From an uncultured Nitrospirales bacterium (GTDB lineage Bacteria > Nitrospirota > JACRHL01), in contig CAZGRJ010000008.1 in the NCBI GenBank assembly GCA_964528115.1, positions 1 to 38,859 on the forward strand: a DNA stretch of 38,859 nucleotides. The letters run 5' to 3'. The first letter of the stretch is position 1, and each line of letters starts with the position of its first letter. The notes below the pieces were generated by a model, which saw only the letters and a list, made by a program, of their open reading frames with translations, ran no database searches and was not told the origin of the DNA. Positions 23,377 through 38,859 of the stretch are shown here, in pieces. A program made the translations under genes and the position numbers.

Positions 23377-23393
23377 TGGGGTCAGGCCGGGCC

Positions 23394-24110
23394 TTACGGC
23401 TGGCGGGCTTCCTCCTCCTTGAGGAGGGCGGCGGCGGCCTCGTGGTCCACGTGGCGGATGTCGTGCCCGCGGATCATGTAGATTACCATTTCGCAAATGT
23501 TCGTGGCGTGGTCGCCGATCCGCTCCAGGTTCTTGGAGATGTTCGACAGGATGATGTAGCCGCTGATGCCCGGCGGGTTCTCGAGCATGTAGGTGAGGAT
23601 CTCGCGGTAGAGCGAGTGGTACATCTCGTCCACCGAGGCGTCGTGCTCGATCACCTGGATGGCCAGGTCGATATCGCCCCGCGAGAGGGCGTCCAGGGCC
23701 CGCTGGACCTGGGACTGGACCGCCTCGGACATGTTGGACAGGGCCCCCAGGGGATGGATGCCCGTTCCCTGGAGGCGCAGCGCCCCCTCGCTGATGCCCA
23801 CGGCCAGGTCGCCCATGCGCTCCAGGTCCGTGACCACCTTCACCGACGACAGGATGAAGCGCAGGTCCCGCGCGGCCGGCTGGCGCAATACGAGAATCCG
23901 GCGGATCAGCTCGTCGCACTGGACCTCCAGGGCGTTGACCGCCGCGTCGCGCTCGATGGTCCGCTCGGCGAGGGCCGAGTCGCCCGTCATGAGGGCCTGG
24001 GTGGCGCCGGCGATGGCCTTCTCCACCAGGCCCCCCAGGGAGAGGACCTTGGCCTTGAGCTCGGAGAGCTCGTCGTCGAACCGGCGCATGGTGTGGGCCT
24101 TGGTGGCCAT
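23394..24110 (-). CDS. phoU: phosphate signalling complex protein PhoU
   Basis: ATG 24110 inside ORF 23394..24503. Two PhoU repeats are present: MRRFDDELSELKAKV...DLERMGDLAV and ...NLERIGDHATNICEMVIYM. Confidence 0.9.
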   Translation of the reverse strand: MATKAHTMRRFDDELSELKAKVLSLGGLVEKAIAGATQALMTGDSALAERTIERDAAVNALEVQCDELIRRILVLRQPAARDLRFILSSVKVVTDLERMGDLAVGISEGALRLQGTGIHPLGALSNMSEAVQSQVQRALDALSRGDIDLAIQVIEHDASVDEMYHSLYREILTYMLENPPGISGYIILSNISKNLERIGDHATNICEMVIYMIRGHDIRHVDHEAAAALLKEEEARQP

Positions 24111-24145: not shown

Positions 24146-25021
24146 TCAGCCGAACCGGCCGGTGATGTAGGCCTCGGTCTGCTCGTTCTGGGGCCGGGTG
24201 AACAGGGCCTCCGTCTCGCCGAACTCCACCAGGCGTCCCAGGTAGAAGAACGCCGTGTAGTCCGACACGCGCCCCGCCTGCTGCATGTTGTGGGTGACGA
24301 TGACCACGGTGAAGCGGCCCTTGAACTCGTCGATCAGCTCCTCGATCTTGCCGGTGGCGATGGGGTCCAGGGCCGAGCACGGCTCGTCCATGAGCAGCAC
24401 CTCGGGCTCCACGGCGATGGCGCGGGCGATGCACAGGCGCTGCTGCTGGCCGCCGGAGAGCTGGGTGCCCTGCTGGTTCAGCATGTCCTTGACCTCGTCC
24501 CACAGGGCGGAGCCCTTCAGGGCCTCCTCCACGCGCCCCTCCAGCTCGCTCTTGGGCATGCCGCCGCGCAGGCGCAGGCCGTAGGCCACGTTGTCGAACA
24601 CGGTCATGGGGAACGGGGTGGCTTTCTGGAAGATCATCCCGATCTTGTGGCGCAGGGAGAGGGCGGGAATGGCCGGGTCCAGGATGTTCACCCCGTCCAG
24701 GAGGATCTCGCCGGTGGCGCGCTGGCCCTTGTAGAGCTCGTACATCCGGTTGTAGGTGCGGATGTGGGTGCTCTTGCCGCAGCCCGAGGGGCCGATGAAG
24801 GCGGTGACCTCGCCGCGGGCAATGTCGAGGGTGTTGTCCGTGAGGGCCTGCTTCCCGCCGTAGTAGAAATTGAGGTCGCGCACGGAGATCTTGGGGTCGG
24901 TGACGGGAGCGGCCTCCTGCACCATGGGCGTGGGGAGCTCGAGGTGCGGCGTCTCCGGCGGGTTCTGGGCGGTGGAGGGGTCTTCGGTCATGGGGTCCCG
25001 GGTCTGTTGGGGGCGGATCAT
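24146..25021 (-). CDS. pstB: phosphate ABC transporter ATP-binding protein PstB
   Basis: Motifs: [11 protein letters not shown], Walker [10 protein letters not shown], signature [14 protein letters not shown], Walker [13 protein letters not shown], and C-terminal [13 protein letters not shown] 25021 is the longest start. ATGs at 24991 and 24925 would give a more E. coli-like length. Confidence 0.9.
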
Positions 25022-25032
25022 TGGTATATACC

Positions 25033-25893
25033 CTACGGGCGGTGGGTCCGGGCGAGCACCAGGCGCGAGGTCACGGTCAGGGCCAGGACCGCCGCCGTGA
25101 TCAGGAAGGCGGCGCCCCAGGCCATGGCGTGCCAGTCGTCGTAGGGGCTCATGGCGTAGTTGAACAGGGTGACGGTCAGGTTCGCCATGGGCTCGTTCAG
25201 GCCGTTCATCCAGTAGGGGCTGTTGAGGGCGGTGAACAACAGCGGCGCCGTCTCCCCCGAGACCCGCGCCACGGCCAGCAGGATCCCCGTGACCATGCCC
25301 GCCGCCGCGGCCCGGTAGATGACCCCCACCATCATCCGCCAGTACGGCGCGCCCAGGGCCAGGGTGGACTCGCGCATCTCGAGCGGCACCAGGCGCAGCA
25401 TCTCCTCCGTGGTCCGGGTGACCACCGGCAGCATGATAATCGCCAGCGACACCGCCCCGGACCAGCCCGAGAAGTTGCCCAGGGGCTTGACCATGACCAG
25501 GTAGACGAACACCCCCACCACGATCGACGGGGCCGACACCAGGATGTCGGACACGTAGCGCACCGCCGCGCCGAACTTGGTCGCGGCGCCGAATTCGGCC
25601 AGGTAGGTGCCCGCCAGAACGCCGATGGGCACCGCCATCAGGGCCGCCACGACGGTCAGGAGCAGGGTCCCGGCGATGGCGTTGGCCAGGCCCCCGCCGC
25701 CCTGGCCGGGGGGGGAGGGGAGCTGGGTGAAGAACGTCCAGTTGATCGCCTGAGTCCCGCGCAGTGCCACGTCGCCCAGGATCCAGACGAGCATCCCCAG
25801 GCCCACGAAGGCGGCCAGGGTGGACAGGGCCATGACCGCGGCGTTGACGTTGCGGCGCCGGGCCGTGGCGGCGGAGTTGGCGATGCCGGCCAT
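25033..25893 (-). CDS. pstA: phosphate ABC transporter permease PstA
   Basis: Multi-pass permease with the EAA-type loop [15 protein letters not shown], and it sits immediately after pstC (TGACATG junction). [10 protein letters not shown] is typical of PstA. Confidence 0.9.
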
Positions 25894-25894
25894 G

Positions 25895-26872
25895 TCAGCT
25901 GCTCCTCGCCGGGGCGGACATGTGCTTCATCCACAGGTTGGCCAGCCCCAGGATGACGAACGTGATCACCGCCAGCACCAGCCCCAGCTCCACCAGCGAG
26001 GCGGTGTAGACGTCGCCGTCCGCCTCGGTGAACTCGTTGGCCAGGGTGGAGGCGATGGAGTTGCCCGGGGCGAACAGGGAGAGCGACAGGCGGTGGGCGT
26101 TGCCGATCACGAAGGTGACCGCCATGGTCTCCCCCAGCGCCCGGCCGAGCCCCAGGAACACGGCGCCGTAGATGCCCTTGCGGCCATAGGGGATCATGAT
26201 GTCCTTCACCACCTCCCAGGTGGTGGCCCCCATGCCGTAGGCCGACTCCTTGAGGGTCGGCGGCACCATCCGGAAGACGTCGCGGGTGACCGCGGCGATG
26301 AAGGGCACGATCATCAGGGCCAGGACCAGGCCCGCGGTGAGCATGCCGATGCCCATCTTGGGGCCCTGGAACAGGGGCATCCAGCCGAACACGGCCGCCA
26401 GCCACGGCTGCACGTGGTCGGCCATGAGGGGGGCCAGGATGAACAGCCCCCACATGCCGTACACGATGCTCGGGATGGCGGCCAGGAGCTCGATGGCCAC
26501 GCCGAACGGGGTCCGGATGCGGACGGGCGCGATCTCGGCCAGGAAGAGGGCGATCCCCAGGCTCACCGGCACCGCCACGACCAGGGCCACGGCGGTGGAG
26601 AGCAGGGTGCCGACGGCGGCGGCCAGGGCGCCGAAATTCTCCGTCACCGGGTTCCAGGCGTCGCTCGTGAGGAAGCTCCAGCCGAACGCCTCGATGGACG
26701 GCCCCGAGGCCCGCCAGAGGACGAAGAACATGGAGCCGAGCAGCAGCAGGATGCCGCCCGCGACGCCCGCGGTCAGGGCCTTGAAGATACGGTCGCCGAA
26801 GGCGCCGCGGGACCGCGAGGCGGCCTTGTCGGGGCCCATGGTGGCGGCGTCCTGCATGGCGGTTGCCGGCAT
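25895..26872 (-). CDS. pstC: phosphate ABC transporter permease PstC
   Basis: GGAGGA lies 5 nt upstream of ATG 26872. Motifs: FGALAAAVGTLLST, IPSIVYGMWGLF, and the EAA loop KESAYGMGATTWEVV. Confidence 0.9.
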   Translation of the reverse strand: MPATAMQDAATMGPDKAASRSRGAFGDRIFKALTAGVAGGILLLLGSMFFVLWRASGPSIEAFGWSFLTSDAWNPVTENFGALAAAVGTLLSTAVALVVAVPVSLGIALFLAEIAPVRIRTPFGVAIELLAAIPSIVYGMWGLFILAPLMADHVQPWLAAVFGWMPLFQGPKMGIGMLTAGLVLALMIVPFIAAVTRDVFRMVPPTLKESAYGMGATTWEVVKDIMIPYGRKGIYGAVFLGLGRALGETMAVTFVIGNAHRLSLSLFAPGNSIASTLANEFTEADGDVYTASLVELGLVLAVITFVILGLANLWMKHMSAPARSS

Positions 26873-26940
26873 CTCAATCCTCCAGGGCGGCTCGCCGCCC
26901 GCGCCAGAAATCCCTGCCCGCTCCCGGCATCACCCGCCCT

Positions 26941-27438
26941 TCAGGGCGCCTCGCGGGAGCCGCGGGCGGATCGGGAGCGCTCGCGGTCGATCGCCTTGAG
27001 CATCACCATCTCGCGCTGGAAGACCATGACGCTCGCGATCCGGAGGGCACCCAGCACCAGAAGCAGGACGCTCATGGCGTAGATCTCGGCGGTGCCGAAC
27101 TCGTGCTCGAAGGTCTTGATCATCAGCTCCCGGAGCATGAACACGATCGCCGCGTCGACGATGAACGTCAGACGCAGCCGCAGGGTGTCGAAGTACTCCA
27201 CCAGCGAGCGCGAGAGCTCCACCAGGACGAACAGCGTCAGGATGTCCGACACCATCGCCAGGTAACGTTCCGCCACCCCCGGCTCCGAGATCAGCTCGAG
27301 CACGGTCAGGAAGAGGCGCGTGGTCCCGATCACCATGCCGAGCATGATGAAGACCAGGATCACTCCGAAGATGACCCCGGTGATCTGGTCGAACCAGACC
27401 TTGGGGTTCAGCCGGAGGTGGCGGAACGGGCGCTCCAT
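26941..27438 (-). CDS. PsiE-like (phosphate-starvation-inducible) small membrane protein
   Basis: 165 aa with four hydrophobic helices: ITGVIFGVILVFIMLGMVIG, YLAMVSDILTLFVLVELS, LTFIVDAAIVFMLRELMI and IYAMSVLLLVLGALRIASVMV. This layout is what I associate with the PsiE family. The assignment is from memory, not from a search. Confidence 0.55.
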   Translation of the reverse strand: MERPFRHLRLNPKVWFDQITGVIFGVILVFIMLGMVIGTTRLFLTVLELISEPGVAERYLAMVSDILTLFVLVELSRSLVEYFDTLRLRLTFIVDAAIVFMLRELMIKTFEHEFGTAEIYAMSVLLLVLGALRIASVMVFQREMVMLKAIDRERSRSARGSREAP

Positions 27439-27485
27439 GGGGGAGCTATGTTACCCCAAGCGGGGCGGCCGTCAGTGCCCGGCGG

Positions 27486-28547
<1,062 letters not shown>

Positions 28548-28628
28548 GACGAAAATCCTTTCGCGTGAATGTGGAGGCCGGGGGCCCCGACGGGTTCTGT
28601 TTGCCGTGCCGGCCTGAGTTTCCGCGGG

Positions 28629-28661
28629 ATCGTAGAGGGGCAACGTTAATGTTTCATGAAG
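28629..28661 (-). promoter_or_regulatory. candidate pstS promoter / Pho-box-like element
   Basis: This is the only AT-rich patch in the 169-nt phoR-pstS spacer. The minus strand reads CTTCATGAAACATTAACGTTGCCCCTCTACGAT. ATGAAA (4/6 to -35) is 17 nt from TACGAT (TAnnnT). TTCAT and TTAAC are offset by 11 nt, as PhoB half-sites are, but the match to the CTGTCAT consensus is poor. Confidence 0.3.
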
Positions 28662-28716
28662 GGCCGGTGAGGACCGCGTGCGGACCGTCGCCCGAGGCGC
28701 GGAGGGGGGGGCCGGG

Positions 28717-30111
28717 TCAGGCCACGGGCAGGTGGATGCGGAACGTGCTCCCTAAGCCCGGGGTGCTCTCGACGCTGGCCCGCCCGCCGTGGGCCAGGCA
28801 GATGTGTTTCACGATGGCGAGCCCCAGGCCCGTGCCCCCCAGCTCGCGGCTGCGGGCCGGGTCCACCCGGTAGAAGCGCTCGAACAGGCGCGGGAGGTGC
28901 TCCGGTTCGATGCCCCGGCCCCGGTCGATGACCTCGATGACGCACTCCCCCCCCTTGGCCACGCCGTGCAGGGTCACGACGCCGCCCTCGGGGCTGTACT
29001 GGATGGCGTTCTGGAGCAGGTTGATGATCGCCTGCTCCAAGAGGGGCGGGTCCATGGGGGCGGTGAGGTCGGCCGGGCAGTCAACCTCCACCCGCACCTC
29101 GCGCGCCAGGGCCTGGGGCTCGCAGGCGGTCTCGGCGGCGGCCAGGACCTGGGCCACGGGGCCCTCGCCCAGGTGCGTCGCGGCGCCCGTGTCCACCTGC
29201 TGCTCGATGCGGGCCAGGCTCAGGGTGTCGGAGATCAGGGCCGCCAGGCGCTCGGACTGGCGCCCGATGATGGCCAGGAAGCGCTCTCTCGCGGGGGGGT
29301 CGTCGCCGGCCCCTTCCAGGAGGGTGTCGGCGGCCCCCTTGATGGCGGTGACGGGGGTCTTGAGCTCGTGGGAGACGTTCGCCACGAAGTCGCGCCGGAC
29401 GTTCTCCAGCTCCCGGATGCGGGTGATGTCGGAGAGCACCACCACCGTCCCCAGGCGCCGACCGCCCCGGTCCGCCAGGCGCGTGCCGCCCACCCGCAGG
29501 TGGCGGGCCCGGGCGCCGGAGCCGAGGGTCACCTGGGTCTCGGCCGGCGCCCCCTCCTTGTCGATGCGCTCCACGAAGCGCAGCAGGTCGGGGTTGCGCA
29601 CCACGTCGGTGAGCGCGCGTCCCTGGTAGGGGACGCCGGTCATGCCGAAGATGCGGGCGGCGGCCGGGTTCAGGGTGAGCACCCGCCCGGCCGTGTCCAC
29701 GGCCAGGACGCCTTCCGTCATGCTGGCGAGGATGGCGTCCTGCTCGGTGCGCTGGCGGGCCACGTCGCCGTGCCTGGCCTCCAGCTGGCGGGCCAGCTCG
29801 TTGAGGGCCTCGTTGAGCTCGGAGAGCTCGCGGATCGGGGCCGACGGCAGGCGCAGACCCCCCTCGCCGGCCGCCAGGCGCGCGGCCTCGGCGGCGGCCT
29901 CCTCCACCGGGCGGGCGATGCGCCAGGCGGCGAGCAGGCCCACGGCCCCCGCCACCAGGCCCGCCACGCCCACCACGGCGCCGATGCCCGACTTCCCCGT
30001 GCCCCCGGTGCCCCCCGTGCCCGCCGTGCCAAAGACCAGCACCACGGCCAGGGCCCCCCAGGTGCACAGGAGCACCGCGGCGCCGATCCGCCAGCGGAGC
30101 CGATCCTGCAC
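28717..30111 (-). CDS. phoR: phosphate regulon sensor histidine kinase PhoR-type (TM-TM-HAMP-PAS-HisKA-HATPase)
   Basis: GTG 30111, 3 nt after the phoB stop. Two TM helices flank a tiny loop. The PAS-like segment is ILASMTEGVLAVD. Kinase motifs are H-box FVANVSHELKTPVTAI, N-box LLQNAIQYSP, G1 DRGRGI and G2 GGTGLGLAIV. Confidence 0.85.
   Translation of the reverse strand: MQDRLRWRIGAAVLLCTWGALAVVLVFGTAGTGGTGGTGKSGIGAVVGVAGLVAGAVGLLAAWRIARPVEEAAAEAARLAAGEGGLRLPSAPIRELSELNEALNELARQLEARHGDVARQRTEQDAILASMTEGVLAVDTAGRVLTLNPAAARIFGMTGVPYQGRALTDVVRNPDLLRFVERIDKEGAPAETQVTLGSGARARHLRVGGTRLADRGGRRLGTVVVLSDITRIRELENVRRDFVANVSHELKTPVTAIKGAADTLLEGAGDDPPARERFLAIIGRQSERLAALISDTLSLARIEQQVDTGAATHLGEGPVAQVLAAAETACEPQALAREVRVEVDCPADLTAPMDPPLLEQAIINLLQNAIQYSPEGGVVTLHGVAKGGECVIEVIDRGRGIEPEHLPRLFERFYRVDPARSRELGGTGLGLAIVKHICLAHGGRASVESTPGLGSTFRIHLPVA
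29998..30030. repeat. imperfect 9-bp tandem repeat (3.7 units) inside phoR
   Basis: CGTGCCCCC / GGTGCCCCC / CGTGCCCGC / CGTGCC encodes GTAGTGGTGGT, the short loop between the two PhoR transmembrane helices. The unit length is a multiple of 3. Confidence 0.6.
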
Positions 30112-30114
30112 GGC

Positions 30115-30801
30115 CTACTCCCGGACGCGGTAGCCGACCCCGCGCACGGTCTCCACCACGTCCCCGGCGGCCCCGAGCTTCTTGCGCAGGGCCGCCACCT
30201 GTACGTCCACGCTGCGCTCGGTCACGGGGTGCCCGATCCCCATGACGGCGTCCACGATCTGGTGGCGGGTGAACACCCAGCCCGGGCGCCGGGCCAGGAA
30301 GTGCAGGATGCGGAACTCGGTGGGGGTGAGCGGCACGGCCTCGCCGTCCACCTCCACCCGGTGCCGGCCCGGGTGGATCGTCACCCCGTGCACCGCGAGG
30401 GGCTGCTCCGGGCCGGGCTCCGGCCCCCCCACGCGCCGGAGGAGCGCCGCCACCCGGGCGAGCAGGACGGCGGGGGAGAACGGCTTGACCATGTAGTCGT
30501 CGGCCCCCAGGTTGAGGCCGGCCACGATGTCGGCCTCGGTGCCCCGGGCGGTGACCATCATGACCGGGACGTTCTGGGTGGCGGGGGTGCGCTTGAGGGC
30601 CCGGGCCACGGACAGGCCGTCCAGCCCGGGGAGCATGAGGTCCAGGACCACCATGTCGGGGGGCGCCTCGCGGCACAGGGCGAGGCCCGCCTCGCCGGTG
30701 GCCGCGGGGGTGACGCGGTACCCCCCCTTCTCCAGGTTGTAGCGGATGAGCTCGAGGATGTCCGGCTCGTCCTCGACCACCAGGATGCGCGCTTCGGCCA
30801 T
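30115..30801 (-). CDS. phoB: phosphate regulon response regulator PhoB (OmpR family)
   Basis: ATG 30801 (AAGGACGGA upstream) inside ORF 30115..30879. The receiver domain shows RILVVEDEPDI...VVLDLMLPGLDG...MVTARG...DDYMVKPF. The winged helix shows LTPTEFRILHFLARRPGWVFTR...VDVQVAALRKKL...VRGVGYRV. Confidence 0.9.
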   Translation of the reverse strand: MAEARILVVEDEPDILELIRYNLEKGGYRVTPAATGEAGLALCREAPPDMVVLDLMLPGLDGLSVARALKRTPATQNVPVMMVTARGTEADIVAGLNLGADDYMVKPFSPAVLLARVAALLRRVGGPEPGPEQPLAVHGVTIHPGRHRVEVDGEAVPLTPTEFRILHFLARRPGWVFTRHQIVDAVMGIGHPVTERSVDVQVAALRKKLGAAGDVVETVRGVGYRVRE

Positions 30802-30817
30802 GGTTTCCGTCCTTGGG

Positions 30818-30870
30818 GTGTGCGGGGCGCATGATCCCACGACCACGCCCCGGTCGTCGGTCCCGCACAC
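30818..30870 (-). other. two-tier GC-rich hairpin in the phoB 5' leader
   Basis: The outer 9-bp stem pairs 30818-30826 (GTGTGCGGG) with 30862-30870 (CCCGCACAC). The inner stem pairs 30837-30844 with 30852-30860 (6 bp, a 1-nt bulge, then 2 bp) around a 7-nt loop. The 3' arm on the mRNA ends about 7 nt before the AAGGA ribosome-binding site. Confidence 0.35.
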
Positions 30871-30893
30871 AAACCGCACCGGAACCGAACCGG

Positions 30894-30902
30894 ATTCTAA
30901 CA
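30894..30902 (-). promoter_or_regulatory. candidate extended -10 promoter for phoBR (TGTTAGAAT)
   Basis: The minus strand reads GCTGTTAGAATCC, i.e. TGn + TAGAAT (5/6 to TATAAT), about 95 nt upstream of the phoB ATG. There is no good -35, consistent with an extended -10 or activator-dependent promoter. Confidence 0.3.
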
Positions 30903-30937
30903 GCGTTTCCCGGGCATCGGGAGCCGGGGGGCCGGGA

Positions 30938-32119
30938 TCAGGGCACGGTGAAGTTGAGCGTCGAGGTGTGGGTCGGCCCGCCGCCCACCTGGGTGTGGGT
31001 GAAGACGATGGTCACGTCCATGCCGCTGATGGCGCCGTTGAAGTCGAACTCGTCGAAGGTGTAGGTGCCGCCGGCCGGAATCTGGACCGTCTTGCACAGC
31101 GTGGTCAGGCTGGCGGGGGTGGACTGGTCGCCGTTCGGCGTGCCGCAGCTGAAGTTGTCCCACACGTCGGTGCCGCCGTTGCAGGAGGAGGCGGTGCCGC
31201 CGCTCTGGACCTGCTGCAGGTCGCGCCAGTTGTAGCTCCAGCTCACGTCGATCTGGGTGATCTCGATGTCCACCGTGTCGTTGTTGGTCAGGACGAAGGC
31301 CGTCTCGTCGTTGCCGCCGCACTGGTACAGCTCGCCCGGCACCATGGTCAGCACGTCGTCCGAATCGCCGCCCGAGGCGCCGCTCCCGCCGCCGCCGGGG
31401 GGGCTCCAGACCATGGCGAAGTACACGTCGTCCCCCGTGGGCCCGGTGCCCACGCCGGCACCGTCCGGACCCAGGCTGTAGACCACCGCGGACTCGTCGT
31501 TGTTGTAGGCATACATGAGGCTGTTGCCCCAGGCGTCCGTCTGCCAGGCGGCCGGGATCGTGTAGGCGGAGGGCGCCAGGGTGGGGCTGGTGCCGTAGAC
31601 GTCGCCCGCGACGAGCTTCAGGCGCTCGTAAGTGTCGCGGATCCGGCGCTCCACGGTCTCGTAGTCCTGGACCACCGTGAGGGCGATGTCGTCCGTCGTG
31701 CCCGCCGTCTGGTCCTGCCCCGGGCTCGTGAGCACGGCGGTGGGGTCGCCGGCGGTGTAGGCGTAGTCGATCAGGCCACCCCAGGCGTCCAGGGCGTAGT
31801 CGCCCGCGGCCCACTGGGCGGTGAGGTAGGGGCCGCTCCAGCCCGGGGCGCCGATGGTGTCGGCCTGGAGCTCGCCCAGGTCGGCCACGTCGTCGCCGGT
31901 GTCGGGGGGGAAGGCGTCCACGTCGCGGTGGTAGGCGCGCAGGGCGTCGGCGATCAGCTCCAGGTGGTCCTCGGTGGCGAAGCGCCGCTGCTGGTCCACC
32001 CGGGCCGCGATGAGGGGGGCCAGGGCCCCCGCCAGGACGGCGAGGACGGCGATCACCACGATCACCTCGATCAGGGTGAAGCCCGCGCCGCGGGCGGTTC
32101 GGCGCGGTTCAGGCGGCAT
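30938..32119 (-). CDS. giant GspG-like pseudopilin/pilin (393 aa) with prepilin N-terminus, duplicated GspG-type head and unassigned C-terminal Cys-containing domain
   Basis: ATG 32119 inside ORF 30938..32383, with an 11-nt overlap on the secretin stop. The class III signal is MPPEPRRTARGAG|FTLIEVIVVIAVLAVLAGALAPLI (G-1, F+1, E+5). Two GspG-like blocks are DAWGGLIDYAY...SPGQDQTAGTTDDI and DAWGNSLMYAY...LGPDGAGVGTGPTGDDV. A Gly/Ser linker is followed by a ~138-aa tail with 4 Cys. Confidence 0.8.
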   Translation of the reverse strand: MPPEPRRTARGAGFTLIEVIVVIAVLAVLAGALAPLIAARVDQQRRFATEDHLELIADALRAYHRDVDAFPPDTGDDVADLGELQADTIGAPGWSGPYLTAQWAAGDYALDAWGGLIDYAYTAGDPTAVLTSPGQDQTAGTTDDIALTVVQDYETVERRIRDTYERLKLVAGDVYGTSPTLAPSAYTIPAAWQTDAWGNSLMYAYNNDESAVVYSLGPDGAGVGTGPTGDDVYFAMVWSPPGGGGSGASGGDSDDVLTMVPGELYQCGGNDETAFVLTNNDTVDIEITQIDVSWSYNWRDLQQVQSGGTASSCNGGTDVWDNFSCGTPNGDQSTPASLTTLCKTVQIPAGGTYTFDEFDFNGAISGMDVTIVFTHTQVGGGPTHTSTLNFTVP

Positions 32120-34391
32120 GGCCGAAGCCGGTGCCCGTCCCCGCGGTCGGCACGGGCGTCGGCGCGGACGGGGCCTCGGCGGGTCGGGGCGGCGCCGGGG
32201 TATGGGCCGCAGGCGCGGCGTCTGCCGGTGCCGTGCCGGCGGTTGCGGATTTGCCTTCGGGCCCGGCCAGGAGGGCGTCGATGGCGGCGATCCGGCGCCG
32301 CACCTGGAGGACGAACTCGGGGTCGCGCTCGCTGATCTTCGGCAGGGCCGAGACGTACAGCATCCGGGCCGCCTCCAGGCCACCCTCGGAGAGCAGGATC
32401 TCGGCCCGGTCCACCACCGCCTCCACGGCCTGGGGGTCGATGCGGGCGGCCTCGGCGAAGGCGGCCTCGGCCAGCTCGGGCTGGCCCGCCCCCAGGTAGG
32501 CGACGCCCAGGTTCGTGATCAGGCCCGCGTTCTTGGGGAAGTACTCGATGCCCTGCTTGAGCACGCGGATCGCCGGGTCGAACGCCCCGGCGGCGGTGAA
32601 GGCCAGGGCGATGCGGTTGACCCCCTGGGCGTGCTCGGGGCGCGTCTTGGCCAGCTCGGACCAGAGCTGCAGGGCCCGGGTGGTCTGGGCCCGCTGGGCG
32701 TACAGGAGGGCCAGCTGGAAGCGGGCCTCGGAGAGGTTCGGGTCCAGGCGCAGGGCCTTCTGCCACTCCTGCTCGGCGCGCTCGCCCTCGCCCTGGCGCG
32801 CGAACCCGGTGCCGGCATCCAGGTGGTAGCGGGCCAGCCCCGAGCGCGTGACCGGGCTGAAGCCGCCCCCGGGGACGGGGGGCGTGCCCCCGGCGGGAAA
32901 GCCGAGCGGGGCGAAGCCGCCCGTGGGCGATTCCTGCACCAGGTCGAAGCTGCGCCCGTGGAGGATGCCGAAGTGGAACGGCCGGGCCACGTCGGTCAGG
33001 CCCTCGATGCCGTCCGAGACGGCCTGGGCGATGCGCTGGGTGTCCAGGACCGTGGGGGTCAGCAGGATCAGCAGCTCGACCCGGTCCTCCTTCTGGTCCG
33101 TGCTGCGGAACAGGGGACCGATGAGGGGCAGGCTGCCCAGGCCCGGGACCTTGCTCACGTCCTCGGTGCGGCGCTTCTGGATGAAGCCGCCCAGGACGAT
33201 GCTCTCGCCGTCGCGCACCTTGAGGACCGTCTCGGTCTCGCGCTCGTTGAGGATCGGCAGGGTCTGGAGGCCGTCGGGGGTGGTGATCTCGCCGGACACC
33301 TCCGTCACCTTCGGGTGGACCAGGATCGTCAGGCCGCCGTCGGCGCCGATCTGGGGGGTCACCTCCAGGCGAATGCCGGCCTCCTTGAAGCTCACGTCGT
33401 AGCGCGCGATCGTGTTGGTGGGGTCGATCTCGCCCGAGAGGACCTCCCGGCTGACCACGGGCACCTGCTCGGTGACGTGGATGACCGCCGGGTTGTTGTT
33501 CAGGGTGGCGACCCGGGGCGAGGACAGCATGTTCACCTGGCCCTGGGCGTGCAGGGCCTCCAGCAGGGCGGAGAAGTCCCCGGTGCGGAACAGGCCGAAC
33601 TGGATGCCGTTCACGTTCGGGGCGAAGGACTGGAGCAGGGCGTTGCCCCCTGCGGCGGCGCCGGAGACGCCGGGGCCGATCCCCAGCGCGCGCGGGAAGA
33701 GGCCGTAGTTGACCCCCATCTGGAAGCTGTCGTTGAGGGTGACCTCGATGACCTTGGCCTCGATCAGCACCTGGCGCCCGATGATCTCCTCCAGGTGGTG
33801 GAGGTGGGCCTCCACCTGGTCCAGGTTCTCCGGGCGGTCGGCGACGATCAGCGTCCCCGTGGCGGGGCTCACGGTGACCTTGCCCTCGGGGGTGAGCAGG
33901 GCCTTGACCTGGGTGCCGATGTCGTCCCACAGGGCGGTGTAGCCGGCGCCGGCCACGTAGTCCAGGTGGAAGACCCGGCGGTCGTTCTGGCCGATGCGGG
34001 CGTAGCCGTCCTGGTAGGTCATGGCCAGGCCCTGGCTGCGCAGGACGGCGGCCAGGACCTGCTCCGGGGTGGCGCCCAGGAAGTCGGCCGTGATCCGGCC
34101 CTGGACGCCGTCGTCCACCATCACGTTCATGTCGCTGCCCTTGAACAGCAGGCGGATGGCGTCGGCCACGGGGGTGTCGCGGAACCGGAACTTGCCCGCC
34201 GTCCGGGTGGGCGCCGCGGGGGCGGCGGGCACGGTGCCGGGCGGGAGGGCGTCGGCCACCACCAGGGGGGTGAGGGGCTTCGGCAGGTCGGGGCCTTGTG
34301 CGTGGCGCGGGGCCGGGCCGTGGGCGCAGCCCGACAGGAGCACGGCCACGGCGGCCCAGAGGGCGAGGATGCGCTTCAGGGCGGAGGTCAA
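32109..34391 (-). CDS. secretin (GspD/PilQ/MshL family) lipoprotein fused to C-terminal TPR repeats
   Basis: TTG 34391 is preferred (TTGA overlap with upstream stop). It gives LTSALKRILALWAAVAVLLSGC, a lipoprotein signal with lipobox LSGC. ATG 34442 is the ORF-track start. N0/N1-like segments are PVADAIRLLF... and TLIVADRPENLDQVE. The secretin core runs RQVLIEAKVIEVTLND...LSSPRVATLNNNPAVI...GIRLEVTPQI...SKVPGLGSLPLIGPLFR...ELLILLTPTVL. TPR-like repeats cover residues ~535-725 (nt ~32268-32840), followed by a Pro/Ala-rich tail. Confidence 0.85.
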   Translation of the reverse strand: MTSALKRILALWAAVAVLLSGCAHGPAPRHAQGPDLPKPLTPLVVADALPPGTVPAAPAAPTRTAGKFRFRDTPVADAIRLLFKGSDMNVMVDDGVQGRITADFLGATPEQVLAAVLRSQGLAMTYQDGYARIGQNDRRVFHLDYVAGAGYTALWDDIGTQVKALLTPEGKVTVSPATGTLIVADRPENLDQVEAHLHHLEEIIGRQVLIEAKVIEVTLNDSFQMGVNYGLFPRALGIGPGVSGAAAGGNALLQSFAPNVNGIQFGLFRTGDFSALLEALHAQGQVNMLSSPRVATLNNNPAVIHVTEQVPVVSREVLSGEIDPTNTIARYDVSFKEAGIRLEVTPQIGADGGLTILVHPKVTEVSGEITTPDGLQTLPILNERETETVLKVRDGESIVLGGFIQKRRTEDVSKVPGLGSLPLIGPLFRSTDQKEDRVELLILLTPTVLDTQRIAQAVSDGIEGLTDVARPFHFGILHGRSFDLVQESPTGGFAPLGFPAGGTPPVPGGGFSPVTRSGLARYHLDAGTGFARQGEGERAEQEWQKALRLDPNLSEARFQLALLYAQRAQTTRALQLWSELAKTRPEHAQGVNRIALAFTAAGAFDPAIRVLKQGIEYFPKNAGLITNLGVAYLGAGQPELAEAAFAEAARIDPQAVEAVVDRAEILLSEGGLEAARMLYVSALPKISERDPEFVLQVRRRIAAIDALLAGPEGKSATAGTAPADAAPAAHTPAPPRPAEAPSAPTPVPTAGTGTGFGHAA

Positions 34392-34882
34392 TTCCCGTCC
34401 TCCTCCGCCTCGCCCGACACCGGGGGCAGGGGGACGCGCCACACCCGGCCGCCCCGGGCGAGGGTCACCCCGTTGTCTTGCACGCGCACCACTTGGATGT
34501 CACCGACATACCCCCCCTCGCGCACCGGCTCGCCGTCGATCAGCGCCGCTCGCACGCCGCCGTGGACCGCGATCCCCTGCAGGTGCACGGGGTCGGTTCC
34601 CTTCCCCATCGTTTCGGTCGCCCGCACCGGGAACTTGCCCCGGAACTGCTCGCCGGCGGTCATGAACGGGTTGCGGGCGTCGTCCGCGAGGGCCGTGGGC
34701 ACGGCGCTCGCGACGGACGGCTGTGCGGGGTGCCACGGCAGGACGGCCGGCGCCGCCTGCGGCGCCGTCCGGGTGACGGGCTGGGCCGGGTTCTTGCGGG
34801 CCCGGAAATGGTGCAGGTCCCACGCCCCCACGACCACGAGCAACAGGATCAGGGCCCCGATGAAGCGCCGGTCGCGCAGCAT
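34388..34882 (-). CDS. PilP/GspC/MshK-like inner-membrane-anchored secretin-interacting protein
   Basis: 164 aa with the N-terminal anchor FIGALILLLVVVGAW and an ARNPF motif (compare the R-D/N-P-F of PilP/MshK). The C-terminal beta-rich block is LQGIAVHGGVRAALIDGEPVREGGYVGDIQVVRVQDNGVTL. It sits immediately upstream of the secretin. Confidence 0.55.
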   Translation of the reverse strand: MLRDRRFIGALILLLVVVGAWDLHHFRARKNPAQPVTRTAPQAAPAVLPWHPAQPSVASAVPTALADDARNPFMTAGEQFRGKFPVRATETMGKGTDPVHLQGIAVHGGVRAALIDGEPVREGGYVGDIQVVRVQDNGVTLARGGRVWRVPLPPVSGEAEEDGN

Positions 34883-34883
34883 C

Positions 34884-35375
34884 TCAGGCGCCCCCCAGGA
34901 GGTCGAGGCGCAGGGCGACCTCGATCCGGCCGCGGTCGGCGCGCTCCAGGTCCACGCCGATGACGGTCACGGCCGGGGCCGACGCGGCGACGTCCGCCAG
35001 GACCCGGGCCACGGCGGGGAAGCCGGCATCGAAGAACAGGGTGAGCGGCTGGGCGGAAATGCTGCCGCGCGGGACCCGCTGGCCCAGCCGGTACTGCACG
35101 TCGCCCACGCCCTGGCGGCGCACGGCGTCCACCACGGCGGCGGCGCCCGCCGGCAGGGCCGCGGCGGTGGGGATCGGGACCGTTCCCGGCGCGGCGGCGG
35201 GACCGAGCCCGGCGTGGCCCCGGTCGCCGAGGTCGGCGCCGATCCGGTCCGCCTCGGCCCGCAGGGCGTCGGCCTTGCGCGGCAGCAGGTACACGCCCGA
35301 CAAGGCGAGGCCCAGGGTCAGGACGGCCGTGACGCCCAGGACGGAGCGGATGGCGACGCTACGCGGGATCCGCAT
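34884..35375 (-). CDS. GspM/PilO-like bitopic assembly protein
   Basis: 163 aa with the N-terminal TM helix SVLGVTAVLTLGLALSGVYLL, a short helical segment KADALRAEADRIG, and a C-terminal ~80-aa globular region. There is no diagnostic motif. The call rests on size, topology and synteny between the GspL-like and PilP-like genes. Confidence 0.45.
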   Translation of the reverse strand: MRIPRSVAIRSVLGVTAVLTLGLALSGVYLLPRKADALRAEADRIGADLGDRGHAGLGPAAAPGTVPIPTAAALPAGAAAVVDAVRRQGVGDVQYRLGQRVPRGSISAQPLTLFFDAGFPAVARVLADVAASAPAVTVIGVDLERADRGRIEVALRLDLLGGA

Positions 35376-37083
35376 CGCCGGGCTCCTTCAGGGTGAGGTG
35401 GACGGAAAAGGGGGTGACGCCGCCCGTGTCCGGGGGCCCGCCCTTCGGGCTGTTCGTTGGACTGTTCATGGGGCTCAGGTCTACGGCGGCGAAACGGCCC
35501 GTGGCCTCCAGGGCCGAGACCAGCGCGCCCACGGCGCCCAGGGCCTCGGCGGGCCCGGCCAATACCTCACCGCTCGCCGCCACGTGCCAGGCGCCCTTCT
35601 CCCAGGTGACGTAGGCCGTCAGCAGCCGGGCCGCGGGCGGCATGGCGGCCCCCAGGTCGGCCAGCAGGGCGGTGGCGGGCAGGGGGGACGGCAGGCCGTC
35701 GGGCAGGGGGTGGCGGACGCCGTCGGGGGTCACCAGGGGCGTGGGGCCGGAGGCGCCGGACCGGGCCGCGTGCAGGCGCGCCTGCTCCGCCTGGAGCGAG
35801 GCCAGGCGGGCGGCCTCCTCGCCCACGGCGCGGGCCTGGAAGACGACCCCCATCCCGGCCGAGAGCAGGGCGAAGACGAGCAGGGCGGCGGCGGCGTAGG
35901 CGAGGGAAGTGGGCACCTCGCGCCGGCGCAGCTCCTCGGGCACCAGGGTCACGGCGCCGGAGGGCCGCGTGAGCCCCGAAAGGGCCGCCCCCATGGCGAT
36001 CACCATGCGCGGGTCCGGGGCGCCGCGCCAGGTGATGTCCGGGCGGTGGCGGAGCAGGGGGAGCACCTCGGCCCGCAGCTGGCGCGAGAGCCATTCCACG
36101 AAGGGGGCATCGTCCGCCACCGCGCCGGTGAGGACCACCCGGGCGACCTCCCCCGCCTTGAGGTTCTTCTTGGCGTACAGGTGGGTGCGGTGGATCTCCT
36201 CCGTCAGGCGCTCCCAAGCCGCGGGGATCTGCGGGGCGGGGGCCGGGGCGGGCGCCGCCTCGGCCGCGGCGAAGGGGTCCGCCGGCGCCTCGGCGGGGGG
36301 CTCCGGCGGTGAGGCCGCGCCGGTCTCGGAGGACCCGTCCAACGCCGTAGGTCCGTCCAAATCAAACGCGAGGTCGATCTCGCCGAACATCTGGGCCACC
36401 TCGGCGTCCAGGTCGGCGGCCCCCTGGGCGGGTGCCGGGGGCGGCGGGGCGGGCGCCTCCTCGCCGCGGCGGCCGAGGATGCCCCGGTTCATGTGGCGGT
36501 CGTACACGTGGGCGCCGGAGCGGGTCAGGATCAGGTCGGCGTTGTGGTCCCACACCTCGATCAGGGACATCAGCTCGCCCGTCTCCCGGTCGGCGGGGCG
36601 GGTCATGGCCATGATGAACGAGGTGGCGTGGGGCACCACGTCCGAGAGGCTCAGGCCCGCCTCGGTGGCCTCCGCGGCCAGGGTCTCCACGACGTTCCGG
36701 GGCATGGCCCGCACCTCCACGTCGCGCAGGCCGTCGCCGCGCGCCCGCCGGACCGTCCAGGCCACCGCGTCGCCGGGCCGGGCCCCGGCCTCCCGCGCCA
36801 CCACCCGGGCCAGGTCGCGCCGCGCCAGGGCGGGGACGGTCACGGTGCGGTGGCGGAAGTCGGTGTCCACCAAAGAGAAGGTGGCGGAGATGCCCTTCGC
36901 GCCCATGTCGGCGGCCACCCGCGGCAGGGTGGCGCGCTCGGCGGCGGCCAGGATGCGGGTCGCCACGACCTCGTAGCCGGCGCCCTTGCGCGCCACCAGG
37001 CACAGGTTGATCCAGTGCTTGCCCACGGCCACCCCCAGGTGGCTCTGGGCGCGCCCGCCGCCGGGTGTCAGGCGGAAGGCCAT
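35359..37083 (-). CDS. GspL-like / fused PilM-PilN (MshI-like) assembly protein with Pro/acidic insertion
   Basis: ATG 37083 (TGATG junction with gspF stop) inside ORF 35359..38574. The upstream 497 codons of that ORF overlap gspF out of frame. The N-terminal actin-like (PilM/GspL-cyto) pattern is HLGVAVGKHWINLCLV...LIEVWDHNADLILTRSG...VVLTGAVADDAPFVEWL. It is interrupted by a ~85-aa Pro/Ala/Asp/Glu-rich insert (residues ~205-288, nt ~36220-36471). A TM helix LAYAAAALLVFALLSAGMGVVF follows, then a periplasmic PilN/GspL-like tail. Confidence 0.6.
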   Translation of the reverse strand: MAFRLTPGGGRAQSHLGVAVGKHWINLCLVARKGAGYEVVATRILAAAERATLPRVAADMGAKGISATFSLVDTDFRHRTVTVPALARRDLARVVAREAGARPGDAVAWTVRRARGDGLRDVEVRAMPRNVVETLAAEATEAGLSLSDVVPHATSFIMAMTRPADRETGELMSLIEVWDHNADLILTRSGAHVYDRHMNRGILGRRGEEAPAPPPPAPAQGAADLDAEVAQMFGEIDLAFDLDGPTALDGSSETGAASPPEPPAEAPADPFAAAEAAPAPAPAPQIPAAWERLTEEIHRTHLYAKKNLKAGEVARVVLTGAVADDAPFVEWLSRQLRAEVLPLLRHRPDITWRGAPDPRMVIAMGAALSGLTRPSGAVTLVPEELRRREVPTSLAYAAAALLVFALLSAGMGVVFQARAVGEEAARLASLQAEQARLHAARSGASGPTPLVTPDGVRHPLPDGLPSPLPATALLADLGAAMPPAARLLTAYVTWEKGAWHVAASGEVLAGPAEALGAVGALVSALEATGRFAAVDLSPMNSPTNSPKGGPPDTGGVTPFSVHLTLKEPGDADPA

Positions 37084-38300
37084 CAGCGCGCGCCCCCGAT
37101 GGACGAGATGATCGTATAGAGGGTGTAGAAGACCGTCAGGGCGATGCCGCCCACGACGACGCCGAGCACGATGATGATCGCCGGCTCCAGGATCGACAGG
37201 GCCAGGCGGATGCTGGCCTGAACCTCGCGCCGCAGGAACTCGGTGGCGCGGAACAGGGAATCCGGCAGGCGCCCGCCCTCCTCGCCCACGGCCACCATTT
37301 GCAGGGACAGGGGCGGAAAGACGCCGGTGGCCTCCAGGGCGTCGGCCAGGCGGCCGCCGCCCACCACCCGCTCCTCCACCTCGGCCACGCGCTCGGCCAG
37401 GTGGCGGTTCTCCACCACCCCCTGGGAGAGGGTCAGCGCCCGGGCGATGTCCACCCCGGCGTCCAGGAGCAGGCCCAGGCAGTACATGAGCTGGGAGACG
37501 CGGATCAGCCGGATCGTCGTGCCGAACAGGGGCACCTTGAGCACCGCCCGGTCGAGCCACCGGGCGACGGGCTCGCGCCGCCGCAGGACGCCGAACAGGG
37601 CGCCGCCCAGGACGAGCGCGGCGAGCATGAACGGCCAGTAGGCCCCGAAGAACGCGCTGATCCCCAGCAGCACCCGGGCCGCCGCCGGGATGGGCGCCCC
37701 CGAGCCGAAGATGCCCACCAGGCGGGGCAGGACGAAGGTGAGCAGGAACACGATCAGGGCGAGCACGAGGGAGACGATCACGACCGGGTACACGGTGGCC
37801 TGCCTCAGGTCCCGCGCCAGGCCGTCCTGCCACTCCAGGTAGGAGTTCAGGCGGCCCAGCACCGTGTCCAGGCGGCCGGTCTCCTCGCCGGTGGCGACCA
37901 TGGAGACGTAGAGCGGGCTGAAGCACCTGGGGTAGCGCCCCAGGGCGTGGGCCAGGCCCTCGCCGCTCTCCAGGCCGTGGGCCACGTCCTCGAGCATGTG
38001 GGCGATGCCGGGGTCGGGCACGTGGTGGCCGAAGCCGCGCAGCGCCTCGAGCACCGGGATGCCGGCTCCCGCGGCGGTCTCCATGTGGGCGGTGAAGGTC
38101 ATGCGCTCGCGCCGCCCCATGCGCACCTTGGGCGGGCGCACGTGGATGGGCCTGGCCTCGATGAGGATGCCGCCGTCGCCACGGATGCGGGCCGCGAGGC
38201 CGGCCTCGTCCGGGGCCGCCATGGTCCCGGTGCGGGTCCGGCCGTCGGCGCCCGCCATGCGGTAGTGGAAGTCCGGCATGGCGATGCTCCCGGCGCCCAC
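37083..38300 (-). CDS. gspF: type II secretion system F family platform protein (GspF/PilC)
   Basis: Two T2SSF repeats are present: GIPVLEALRGF...LESGEGLAHALGRYPRCFSPLYVSMVATGEETGRLDTVL and GVDIARALTLS...VVGGGRLADALEATGVFPPLSLQMVAVGEEGGRLPDSL. The protein has three TM segments. GTG 38300 is the longest start and ATG 38279 is an alternative. Confidence 0.9.
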   Translation of the reverse strand: MGAGSIAMPDFHYRMAGADGRTRTGTMAAPDEAGLAARIRGDGGILIEARPIHVRPPKVRMGRRERMTFTAHMETAAGAGIPVLEALRGFGHHVPDPGIAHMLEDVAHGLESGEGLAHALGRYPRCFSPLYVSMVATGEETGRLDTVLGRLNSYLEWQDGLARDLRQATVYPVVIVSLVLALIVFLLTFVLPRLVGIFGSGAPIPAAARVLLGISAFFGAYWPFMLAALVLGGALFGVLRRREPVARWLDRAVLKVPLFGTTIRLIRVSQLMYCLGLLLDAGVDIARALTLSQGVVENRHLAERVAEVEERVVGGGRLADALEATGVFPPLSLQMVAVGEEGGRLPDSLFRATEFLRREVQASIRLALSILEPAIIIVLGVVVGGIALTVFYTLYTIISSIGGAR

Positions 38301-38303
38301 GCG

Positions 38304-38859
38304 CTAGGTTCCGGTCCCTTCCGGCGCCGCGACGGGCTCCGCGCGCCGGCCCGAGTGGGCGGGACGGGCGGGCTCGCCCCCGACCTCCGGGCGCTTGAGC
38401 ATCAGGCGGCGCTCGGCCACGCGGCGCACCTCCGCCAGGGTGGTCTCGCCCCGGCGGGCCTTCTCGTAGCCGTCCTGGCGGATGTCCACCATGCCCTCCT
38501 GGCGCGCGGCCTCGGTGATGGCCGAGGCGGAGGCGCGGGCCATGACCAGGTCCGTGACGGCGGTGCTCATGCACAGGAACTCCGCGATCGGGATGCGGCC
38601 CAGGTAGCCGGTCTGGTTACAGCGCGGGCAGCCCACGGCGGACACGAAGTCGCCCGGCTCCGGGTCGTGGGCGAAGGCGGCGAACAACTCCGCGTCGGGG
38701 GTCATGGGCACCTTGCAGTGGGCGCAGGGGCGGCGCACCAGGCGCTGGGAGATGACGGCGATGATCGTGGACGGCAGCAGGTAGGGGGCGACCCCCATAT
38801 CCACCAGGCGCGGCAGGGCGCTGGCGGCGTCGTTGGTGTGCAGGGTGGAGAGCACCAGG
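38304..38859 (-). CDS. gspE: GspE/PilB family secretion ATPase, C-terminal part (5' end outside window)
   Basis: The ORF is open to the window edge. It has the His-box region [21 protein letters not shown], then [12 protein letters not shown], and the tetracysteine motif CAHC...[13 protein letters not shown] ~35-aa Pro/Arg-rich C-terminal tail follows. Confidence 0.9.

Follow-up and report, generated by a model that had tools for sequence, protein, structure and literature searches.

A compact type IV filament gene cluster with a large modular pseudopilin beside phoBR in an uncultured Nitrospirales bacterium

The window analysed here is a stretch of 38,859 nucleotides (nt) from an uncultured Nitrospirales bacterium (contig CAZGRJ010000008.1), and its final part carries on the minus strand a compact cluster of type IV filament genes. 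Judged from homology and from colinear contigs of related organisms, the cluster is an eight-gene unit with two pseudopilins, cut by the window edge, and is a member of a clade of compact systems that extends over several phyla and stands beside the canonical type II secretion system (T2SS). Its last gene encodes G2, a large modular pseudopilin with an immunoglobulin (Ig)-like C-terminal module. With moderate confidence we propose that the cluster serves the cyclic di-GMP (c-di-GMP)-gated assembly of a short GspG-type fibre, which would be capped by G2 and would present the Ig-like module for binding.

Gene content of the cluster

The window has a GC content of 72%, because of which raw lists of open reading frames (ORFs) are crowded with shadow ORFs. 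Coding frames were called by codon-position GC content (GC3), and start codons were picked by position and ribosome-binding site. The GC3 frame analysis revealed unbroken minus-strand coding from about 25000 to 38859. The filament genes within the window are, in the order of transcription:

38304-38859, minus strand: E, assembly ATPase of the GspE/PilB/MshE type, C-terminal 184 amino acids (aa); the gene runs past the window end
37083-38300, minus strand: F, inner-membrane platform protein, GspF-like, 405 aa (T2SSF/GspF models)
35359-37083, minus strand: L, putative PilM-PilN fusion, 574 aa (family-profile matches to PilM)
34884-35375, minus strand: M, bitopic protein, possibly GspM/PilO-like (weak assignment), 163 aa (GspM matches below cut-off)
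34388-34882, minus strand: P, putative GspC-HR/PilP-like protein, 164 aa (predicted fold)
32109-34391, minus strand: D, liposecretin with a C-terminal fused tetratricopeptide repeat (TPR) region, 760 aa (Secretin 9.4e-45, TPR)
30938-32119, minus strand: G2, modular pseudopilin, 393 aa (T2SSG 4e-10, N_methyl)

Metagenome contigs of identical sequence have been annotated independently in public records, with the same products of 163, 164, 760 and 393 aa. Matches to Pfam and NCBIfam families are well past chance for E, F, D and G2; L, M and P gave no above-threshold Pfam match. The minus-strand order E, F, L, M, P, D, G2, proposed earlier in a reading of the sequence alone, is confirmed by the gene calls and family matches, and the labels given there to the three alignment proteins are consistent with profile evidence (L), weak GspM matches (M) and the predicted fold (P). 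Its description of the junctions as overlaps or gaps of at most 3 nt is also correct: from E to G2 they measure +3, -1, -17, +1, -4 and -11 nt.

The last 8.86 kb of the window are colinear with contig L093 (94.4% nucleotide identity). Upstream of this region, L093/L094 contain the rest of gspE, a gene for a 203-aa GspG-like pseudopilin (small G) and the end of an EAL-domain gene. Together with L095, L007, L010 and L012 these contigs represent the relatives of the window lineage and form with it group A; the wider family is referred to as group B. The more distant L095, L007 and L010 (G2 identity 53-74%, GC content 60-73%) share the order REC-PAS-GGDEF-EAL, small G, E, F, L, M, P, D-TPR, G2, phoB, phoR, and contig L012 starts inside the small pseudopilin gene, with just its 3' part present and the region further upstream unreadable. 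The REC-PAS-GGDEF-EAL gene lies upstream in five of the six lineages (as its EAL end on L093/L094, and in L095, L007 and L010). Small G of the relatives, about 205 aa long, has the GspG hallmarks DPWGxPY and GDDI and scores 64-71 bits with T2SSG/TIGR01710, below the cut-off of 88.85.

From the colinear L093 and the other relatives it follows that a second GspG-like pseudopilin gene lies immediately past nt 38859, and the unit thus comprises eight genes with two pseudopilins. The sequence-only reading had described a seven-gene, single-pilin machine; this does not hold, as small G adjoins the ATPase gene upstream in L093 and five other relatives. Its suggestion that missing parts might lie beyond nt 38859 proved right for the extra pilin gene; of gspC/H/I/J/K/O none was found within 10 kb in the relatives. 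In all, neither the Pfam-scanned called genes of the window nor the 10-kb flanks in L007, L010, L012, L093 and L095 contained gspC (with PDZ), gspH/I/J/K/O or pilT, and a GspO-type prepilin peptidase (Peptidase_A24) was absent from the same two sets; the prepilin peptidase must therefore be encoded elsewhere. For the window itself, the lack of minor pilins, prepilin peptidase and retraction ATPase had been noted before and is borne out by the Pfam scan of called genes. Three consecutive N_methyl (prepilin) genes are present in L010 (19788-21167), 8.6 kb downstream of the cluster, which indicates that these organisms have further pilin loci.

Components of the machine

G2 starts with the ATG at 32119 and is 393 aa long, against 481 aa for the maximal ORF. 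The "single giant pseudopilin" of the sequence-only reading is thus single only inside the window, a second pseudopilin being encoded beyond the edge. The protein has a class III signal peptide with the cleavage motif G/FTLIE (cleavage between G13 and F14, Glu at +5), followed by modules delimited with the help of AlphaFold2 (AF2) models:

31670-32080, minus strand: GspG-like module 1 (T2SSG; alpha1 helix and sheet in AF2)
31409-31663, minus strand: pilin-like module 2, without transmembrane (TM) segment (helix and sheet in AF2)
31367-31402, minus strand: Gly-rich linker, residues 240-251 (disordered in AF2)
30947-31351, minus strand: Ig-like beta-sandwich, residues 257-391, with four invariant Cys (AF2, pLDDT >90)

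The overall pLDDT of the model is 83.6. Twenty full-length homologues with 46-90% identity were identified, all from metagenomes or metagenome-assembled genomes (MAGs), one of them annotated at NCBI as a Nitrospirota bacterium. GCA_016212085.1 is one MAG in which the cluster occurs. The C-terminal Ig-like domain is rare: an exhaustive HMMER search yielded 17 representatives among 1.84 billion proteins. Several of these proteins are about 1100 aa long and combine a prepilin N-terminus and Big_1/Invasin_D3 repeats with the C-domain at the far end. One such prepilin, of 1134 aa, is encoded in a type IV pilus (T4P) minor-pilin operon of L098 (GCA_016234185.1, 8906-17341), where its gene is followed by genes for a 601-aa PilX_N protein and a stand-alone MshEN-domain protein. 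Since the C-domain also ends these prepilins of about 1100 aa, it is a distal module of pilin-anchored, adhesin-like proteins.

G2 combines a pilin module, preceded by a class III signal peptide, with a linker and an extra non-pilin module, and by this composition it fits among the modular pilins, a class that includes Streptococcus sanguinis PilB and PilC, CofB and GspK and in which a non-pilin module is likewise grafted onto a pilin module through a short flexible linker (Raynaud et al., 2021). Such pilins have been proposed to sit at the fibre tip (Raynaud et al., 2021). A passenger-bearing pilin subunit, as suggested in the sequence-only reading, is of a class already known. G2 differs from the modular type IV pilins named by those authors in two respects. 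First, two tandem GspG-like modules precede the graft. Second, the graft belongs to a rare, unnamed family and occurs in a T2SS-like rather than T4P context.

The ATPase fragment inside the window matches T2SSE (1.4e-33), scores 159 bits with GspE against 141 bits with PilB, and carries a tetracysteine motif. Full-length orthologues are 575-601 aa long (601 aa for gspE of L093/L094), and those of L012 and L007 are a near tie between GspE (544.5, cut-off 630) and PilB (544.1, cut-off 676). The MshEN part of the ATPase lies beyond the window edge and was scored on orthologues. NF053729, a model of the MshE-related c-di-GMP motif, gave 59-62 bits with the full-length orthologues and 59-66 bits over the set L012, L007 and L013 (cut-off 38). 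The orthologues have two 24-residue c-di-GMP motifs with 5 residues between them, the spacing reported with the crystal structure of MshEN. Key positions are kept at 10/11 and 8/11 in five of six ATPases, and at 9/11 and 9/11 in that of L010. The N-terminus of the orthologues thus matches an MshEN-type domain. This domain and the conserved GGDEF-EAL response regulator gene upstream are the reasons to suggest gating of the ATPase by c-di-GMP, which is reasonable but unproven. PA14_29490, a T2SS ATPase of Pseudomonas aeruginosa, also has MshEN and binds c-di-GMP through it.

Platform protein F matches T2SSF (1.8e-52) and GspF (1.9e-89), with 300.7 bits for TIGR02120 GspF (cut-off 424) against about 200 for the PilC models (about 204, cut-off 700). 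In L, a PilM-like domain on the cytoplasmic side is joined through a Pro/Ala-rich linker to another conserved cytoplasmic region, followed by a single TM helix and a PilN/GspL-like periplasmic domain with a conserved end. Two profiles were built for it, A2 from 12 orthologues and A3 from the wider-family equivalents in other phyla. A2 matched PilM weakly (Myxococcus xanthus, 1.9e-4; Thermus, 2.2e-3) and A3 strongly (3.9e-16, 1.2e-11 and 3.7e-9), PilN matches being faint, and the two profiles align with each other (hhalign 99.3%, E 9e-21, 458 columns). The PilM-like domain is the only relative of L detectable by sequence, with no match to GspL; by these profiles L is most likely a PilM-PilN fusion and a functional analogue of GspL.

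M and P are small bitopic proteins. M gave 17.5 bits with T2SSM_b (E 0.004, below cut-off), and its orthologue from L010 gave 28.8 bits with GspM_XpsM (E 9e-7, below the cut-off of 60); no significant match was found between the M family and the M candidates of the wider family. P consists of an N-terminal TM helix, a disordered linker and a small C-terminal beta-domain (residues 101-151, AF2 pLDDT about 75-80), with no PDZ domain. Profile searches with M and with P against PDB sequences gave no matches. A Foldseek search with the beta-domain of P, however, returned as best PDB folds GspB 4wfw, the HR domain of GspC 3oss_C, LspC, PilP 2y4y and the HR domain of PulC. The match to 3oss_C, from the GspC-GspD complex, has a probability of 0.99 and a TMt of 0.67; the E-values of these matches are weak (0.09-3) because the domain has just some 50 residues. 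P also aligns with its wider-family counterparts (hhalign 97.6% and 92.6%; the GspC_delta match is weak), and its predicted fold fits the GspC-HR/PilP type.

Secretin D has the lipobox LLSG/C, with the Cys at nt 34326-34328 (minus strand), a secretin domain at nt 33045-33557 and a TPR region at nt 32292-32846. Five of the six group A secretins have such a lipobox, PPG/C of L012 being atypical. MshL is nominally the best secretin model, with 201 bits for D (cut-off 250.2) and 215 bits in the wider family; GspD (198, cut-off 351) and PilQ (194, cut-off 284) follow, and none of the three cut-offs is reached. The TPR region gives 57 bits with PilW and 4.8e-6 with P. aeruginosa PilF (2ho1). In Terriglobia the TPR protein is encoded by a separate, unfused PilW/Tgl-like gene. 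Planctomycetota secretins align through the TPR region of D and hence appear to be fused as well. We infer that this region is a putative PilF/PilW/Tgl-like pilotin supplied in cis.

Wider family and relation to known systems

Loci of the wider family were taken from a pattern scan of genome contigs, dominated by the generic motif GFTL[IV]EV[IV]V, and are among the matches listed; their gene sets were read by tblastn and ORF maps. The scan returned N-terminal pilin matches, with no full-length G2 homologue among the matches listed, and is uninformative on the number of species. A Terriglobia locus (L013) has the order G-E-F-G2-L-M-P-D, followed by the TPR gene; Nitrospiraceae have E-F-G2-L-M-P-D; and a Desulfuromonadaceae locus (L025) has E-F-G2-L-M-D-G-G, where gene calling gave no P of its own between M and D. 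Several "Deltaproteobacteria" and Acidobacteriota MAGs carry this gene set too, and Planctomycetota have a related cluster. L and P are homologous across the groups, and the N-terminal modules of G2 align. Within this wider family G2 has a GspG module with a C-terminal beta-rich extension outside Planctomycetota, and two GspG modules in Planctomycetota. Conservation of the exact gene order, which the sequence-only reading had raised, is seen in group A; the Terriglobia, Nitrospiraceae and Desulfuromonadaceae loci have G2 after F instead of after D.

In neighbour-joining bootstrap trees the compact systems stand apart from canonical-type T2SS loci: the ATPase E places them in one clade in 195 of 200 replicates, and the platform F joins them with Planctomycetota in 200 of 200. 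The members share E, F, a PilM(N)-like L, small bitopic HR-like proteins, an MshL-like secretin and two to three GspG-like pilins, including an enlarged G2. By these trees and gene sets the window cluster falls within a multi-phylum clade of compact systems beside canonical T2SS. Its lineage is set apart by two fusions, PilM with PilN and the secretin with the TPR region, by a three-part G2 encoded after the secretin and by the fixed place between the gene for a c-di-GMP enzyme and phoBR.

No curated cut-off for T2SS, type IVa pilus (T4aP) or mannose-sensitive haemagglutinin (MSHA) components was reached by the cluster, in agreement with the earlier statement that it fits none of these canonical sets. 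The NCBIfam cut-offs are strict: of four proteins scored in two canonical-type loci, just the Nitrospira ATPase passes. For scale, these loci score 607-659 with GspE and 381-415 with GspF, the window family 544 and 301. The hybrid make-up claimed before is also seen: parts resembling GspF and GspG stand beside an alignment protein of the PilM type and an ATPase whose N-terminus is of the MshE type. Tad, type IVb pilus, Com and type III secretion system secretin assignments were ruled out, as the ATPase, platform and secretin scores are far lower there.

The nearest described relative, as far as published layouts can tell, is the atypical T2SS Pul/OxpG of Geobacter and Pelobacter. In Geobacteraceae/Pelobacter the "Pul" order is pulF-E-M-N-O-P-Q (a secretin lipoprotein)-G-oxpG (Aklujkar et al., 2012, PMC3543383). 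The locus tags in Pelobacter carbinolicus are Pcar_1678-1685. Compared by published gene order only, this system resembles the window cluster in placing ATPase and platform first and in its PilMNOP-type set, liposecretin and pseudopilins, of which it has two to three, with no gspC/H/I/J/K/L/M. L025, a Desulfuromonadaceae MAG, falls into the same E/F clade as the window, at low identity (E 41%, F 32%, D 28%). Unlike in Pul/OxpG, M and N are fused in the window and the secretin has a fused TPR region; one pseudopilin of the window lineage is encoded upstream of E and the other is the 393-aa three-module protein; and the cluster stands between a GGDEF-EAL response regulator gene and phoBR-pst. 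OxpG of Geobacter is needed for OmpB secretion (Mehta et al., 2006, as cited in PMC3543383). The suggestion that the window holds an undescribed system is thus not supported, as the same gene set occurs in several phyla and the published Pul layout is nearly the same.

Several other systems share parts of this make-up. The MSHA system has an MshE-type ATPase N-terminus of the c-di-GMP-binding type, a lipoprotein secretin and no prepilin peptidase in cis, and its order mshI-J-K-L-(M)-N parallels L-M-P-D-TPR of the window. Unlike MSHA, the window cluster lacks mshM, mshF and mshO-Q, leaves the MshL cut-off unreached, and has GspG-type rather than MshA-type pilins, a GspF-like platform and E-F before the alignment genes. 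With canonical T2SS it shares GspG-like pseudopilins, the GspF-like platform and the GspC-HR-like domain of P; unlike in canonical T2SS, no GspH/I/J/K or GspO (window and 10-kb flanks of the relatives) and no GspL recognizable by sequence were found, and P has no PDZ. Hxc, a Pho-regulated T2SS of Pseudomonas, exports a PstS-like DING protein; LapA is a further Hxc substrate, and HxcQ is a liposecretin, as is D. Hxc has both a genomic and a functional link to phosphate, whereas no substrate gene was found next to the window cluster, and the promoter region of the filament operon lacks a Pho-box-like repeat in L093, L095, L007 and L010. The T4aP set resembles the cluster in the PilM-like domain of L, the PilP-like fold of P and the TPR region closest to PilW/Tgl/PilF. 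The differences from T4aP are the fusion of PilM and PilN, the TPR on the secretin, scores under the PilB/PilC/PilQ cut-offs, the lack of PilT and PilA-like pilins, and the single operon. Finally, a survey of the type IV filament superfamily (TFF) listed 884 "generic" systems as well as chlamydial T2SS without minor pilins and GspLM (Denise et al., 2019). Like the generic TFF systems, the window cluster has an ATPase, a platform, a pilin and a secretin with no specific model fitted; unlike the chlamydial T2SS, its clade has an L/M/P-type alignment set. It would probably be classed as "generic" or as a relaxed T2SS.

Phosphate neighbourhood and possible function

Downstream of G2 the window contains the following features:

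30802-30937, minus strand: intergenic gap of 136 bp, closing the filament operon (gene calls)
30115-30801, minus strand: phoB (PhoB 238 bits, under the curated cut-off)
28717-30111, minus strand: phoR/pnpS-like gene (PnpS 361 and PhoR 285 bits, both under the curated cut-offs)

The phoB-phoR pair is directly 3' of G2 in all six lineages; both genes are conserved neighbours and outside the filament machine itself. Next come pstS-pstCAB-phoU in the window, L012 and L007, and psiE-pstCAB in L095, a locus that breaks off in pstB and in which no pstS was called. The L093 contig stops inside phoR, and L010 keeps phoBR with no pst genes nearby. A PsiE gene lies between pstS and pstC in the window (26941-27438, minus strand) and likewise in L012; in L095 psiE precedes pstC.

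A Pho-box-like direct repeat with an 11-bp period, for which we defined the motif [CT]T[ACT]A[CT]N6[CT]T[ACT]A[CT], has a single site in the window, at 28645-28671 (minus strand), upstream of pstS. It comprises three tandem half-sites with 11-bp spacing, CTCACcggcccTTCATgaaacaTTAAC, and is found nowhere else on either strand. In the relatives L012, L095 and L007 the repeat precedes only pstS, psiE or a gene for a 312-aa protein, and in L007 also phoB; it is absent upstream of small G in L093, L095, L007 and L010. The repeat marks pst promoters and is absent at the filament promoter, and direct control by PhoB was therefore no longer counted as an established feature of the filament operon; the phosphate connection is therefore one of conserved adjacency within a single lineage. 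In the gap between G2 and phoB, an extended -10-like element, TGTTAGAAT (nt 30894-30902, minus strand), is kept in the window, L093, L095 and L012, so that phoBR has its own predicted promoter rather than depending on simple read-through from the filament operon. A scan of 28400-32300 with consensus promoter and terminator models found no terminator and nothing useful.

Further genes around the phosphate locus were observed. The 312-aa protein of L007 is encoded by an unannotated gene (13719-14657) between phoR and pstS, preceded by the Pho-box-like repeat and absent from the window; it may encode a porin or another exported protein under Pho control, which would make the product a possible substrate candidate in that relative. 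A small PilZ-domain protein, representing a second type of c-di-GMP receptor in the neighbourhood, is encoded in the window at 18501-18920 (plus strand), beside an S58 peptidase (17328-18518, minus strand) and a glycogen-phosphorylase-like protein (18874-20733, plus strand). Near the pst/phoU end of the locus, L007 has PilZ and S58, and L012 has PilZ and the phosphorylase. Positions 1-16243 and 20790-23473 of the window are occupied by a large exopolysaccharide-type cluster with several GT1/GT2/GT4 glycosyltransferases, two sulfotransferase families, FkbM-type and class I methyltransferases, a hexapeptide acyltransferase, an asparagine synthase, and a pair made up of an MBOAT (AlgI-like) and a GDSL/AlgX-like protein; this content suggests a sulfated, O-acetylated polymer.

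In the mechanism that we favour, the GspE/MshE-type ATPase, gated by c-di-GMP via its MshEN N-terminus, would drive the GspF-like platform, which would polymerise the GspG-type major pseudopilin. L (PilM-PilN fusion), M (GspM/PilO-like) and P (GspC-HR/PilP-like) would link the platform to the lipid-anchored secretin, the latter probably carrying its PilF/PilW/Tgl-like TPR pilotin in cis. G2 would most likely be located at the fibre tip, standing in for the missing GspHIJK-type initiation complex, and would display its Ig-like binding domain on the outside of the cell. The prepilin peptidase would have to come from elsewhere in the genome.

Several observations weigh against this proposal. The pTM of the G2 model is just 0.43, which makes the relative arrangement of its modules uncertain, and Foldseek gave generic Ig-like folds only, without a specific structural match for the Ig-like domain. 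G2 keeps Glu5, so it could be a shaft subunit. In both MshEN motifs the first Arg is replaced (K/R-P-L-G and Q-L-L-G), which leaves binding of c-di-GMP unproven. The assignment of M as GspM/PilO-like is weak, and the trees had canonical-type T2SS loci as their references, without T4aP or MSH sequences. Moreover, a GspF-like platform with pilins of the GspG type would fit a secretion system no less than a display system, and the sole functional datum for such a layout, that on Geobacter OxpG as cited in PMC3543383, concerns secretion, this system being likened to the window by layout only.

The main alternative is a minimal T2SS in which folded proteins of the periplasm would be driven out through the secretin by a short pseudopilus, with phosphate-scavenging proteins as exports under phosphate limitation, by analogy with Hxc. 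We consider it possible, though rather unlikely. Among the platform models GspF scores highest (301 bits against about 200 for PilC), the two pilins are of the GspG type, P has a GspC-HR-like domain, and no retraction ATPase was found in the window or the 10-kb flanks of its relatives. The position of phoB-phoR directly downstream in all six lineages, with pst genes following in the window, L012, L007 and L095, would suit such a function, as would the export of a PstS-like DING protein by Hxc, the binding of c-di-GMP by PA14_29490 and the reported need of OmpB secretion for OxpG. However, no conserved candidate substrate gene is present in or beside the cluster, the Pho-box-like repeat never precedes small G in L093, L095, L007 and L010, and L010 has phoBR with no pst genes nearby. 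The GspHIJK tip complex and the PDZ domain of P are lacking, L is PilM-like rather than GspL-like by sequence, and the C-domain of G2 is common to adhesin-like pilins.

A more specific version of display, in which the system would be a minimal c-di-GMP-gated and phosphate-tied machine, seems doubtful. G2 would replace GspHIJK/PilVWX, the secretin would have its pilotin in cis, and the fibre would present a binding domain rather than secrete; the presented domain would serve, for example, in attachment to phosphate-bearing particles or in ligand capture.

It is improbable that the cluster is one locus of an ordinary multi-locus T4aP/T2SS-type system, with minor pilins, the prepilin peptidase and possibly PilT elsewhere and its minimalism an artefact of viewing a single locus. 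The prepilin peptidase must indeed lie elsewhere, and T4aP and MSH systems commonly borrow theirs; the three additional N_methyl genes of L010 and the separate minor-pilin operon in a MAG from the same groundwater study point in the same direction. Yet unrelated phyla share this closed set of genes although the surrounding genes differ, E and F form a clade of their own apart from canonical-type T2SS loci, and no curated equivalog cut-off is reached, strict as these cut-offs are. A competence-type pilus taking up extracellular DNA as a source of phosphorus is very improbable: the cluster adjoins the Pho regulon, D has a weaker match to HofQ (131 bits), and Pul clusters have been described near DNA-uptake genes in Geobacteraceae, but comEA, comEC, dprA and pilT are absent from the window and flanks, HofQ is well below the MshL, GspD and PilQ scores, and the pilins are of the GspG type, not ComP- or PilA-type.

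If the display of a binding module by a G2-capped fibre is confirmed, the cluster would be among the smallest self-contained type IV filament machines of diderm bacteria, with eight genes, two pilins, partly fused alignment proteins and a secretin-fused pilotin, and would provide a model for the minimum needed to initiate or cap a filament without a GspHIJK/PilVWX tip complex. The compact clade, which stands beside canonical T2SS, spans Acidobacteriota, Nitrospirota, Desulfobacterota and Planctomycetota. To our knowledge, only Geobacter OxpG, grouped here by layout, has received experimental attention among such compact systems. The placement of the filament genes between GGDEF-EAL and phoBR suggests a link between c-di-GMP, phosphate sensing and a surface filament in uncultured sediment and groundwater bacteria.

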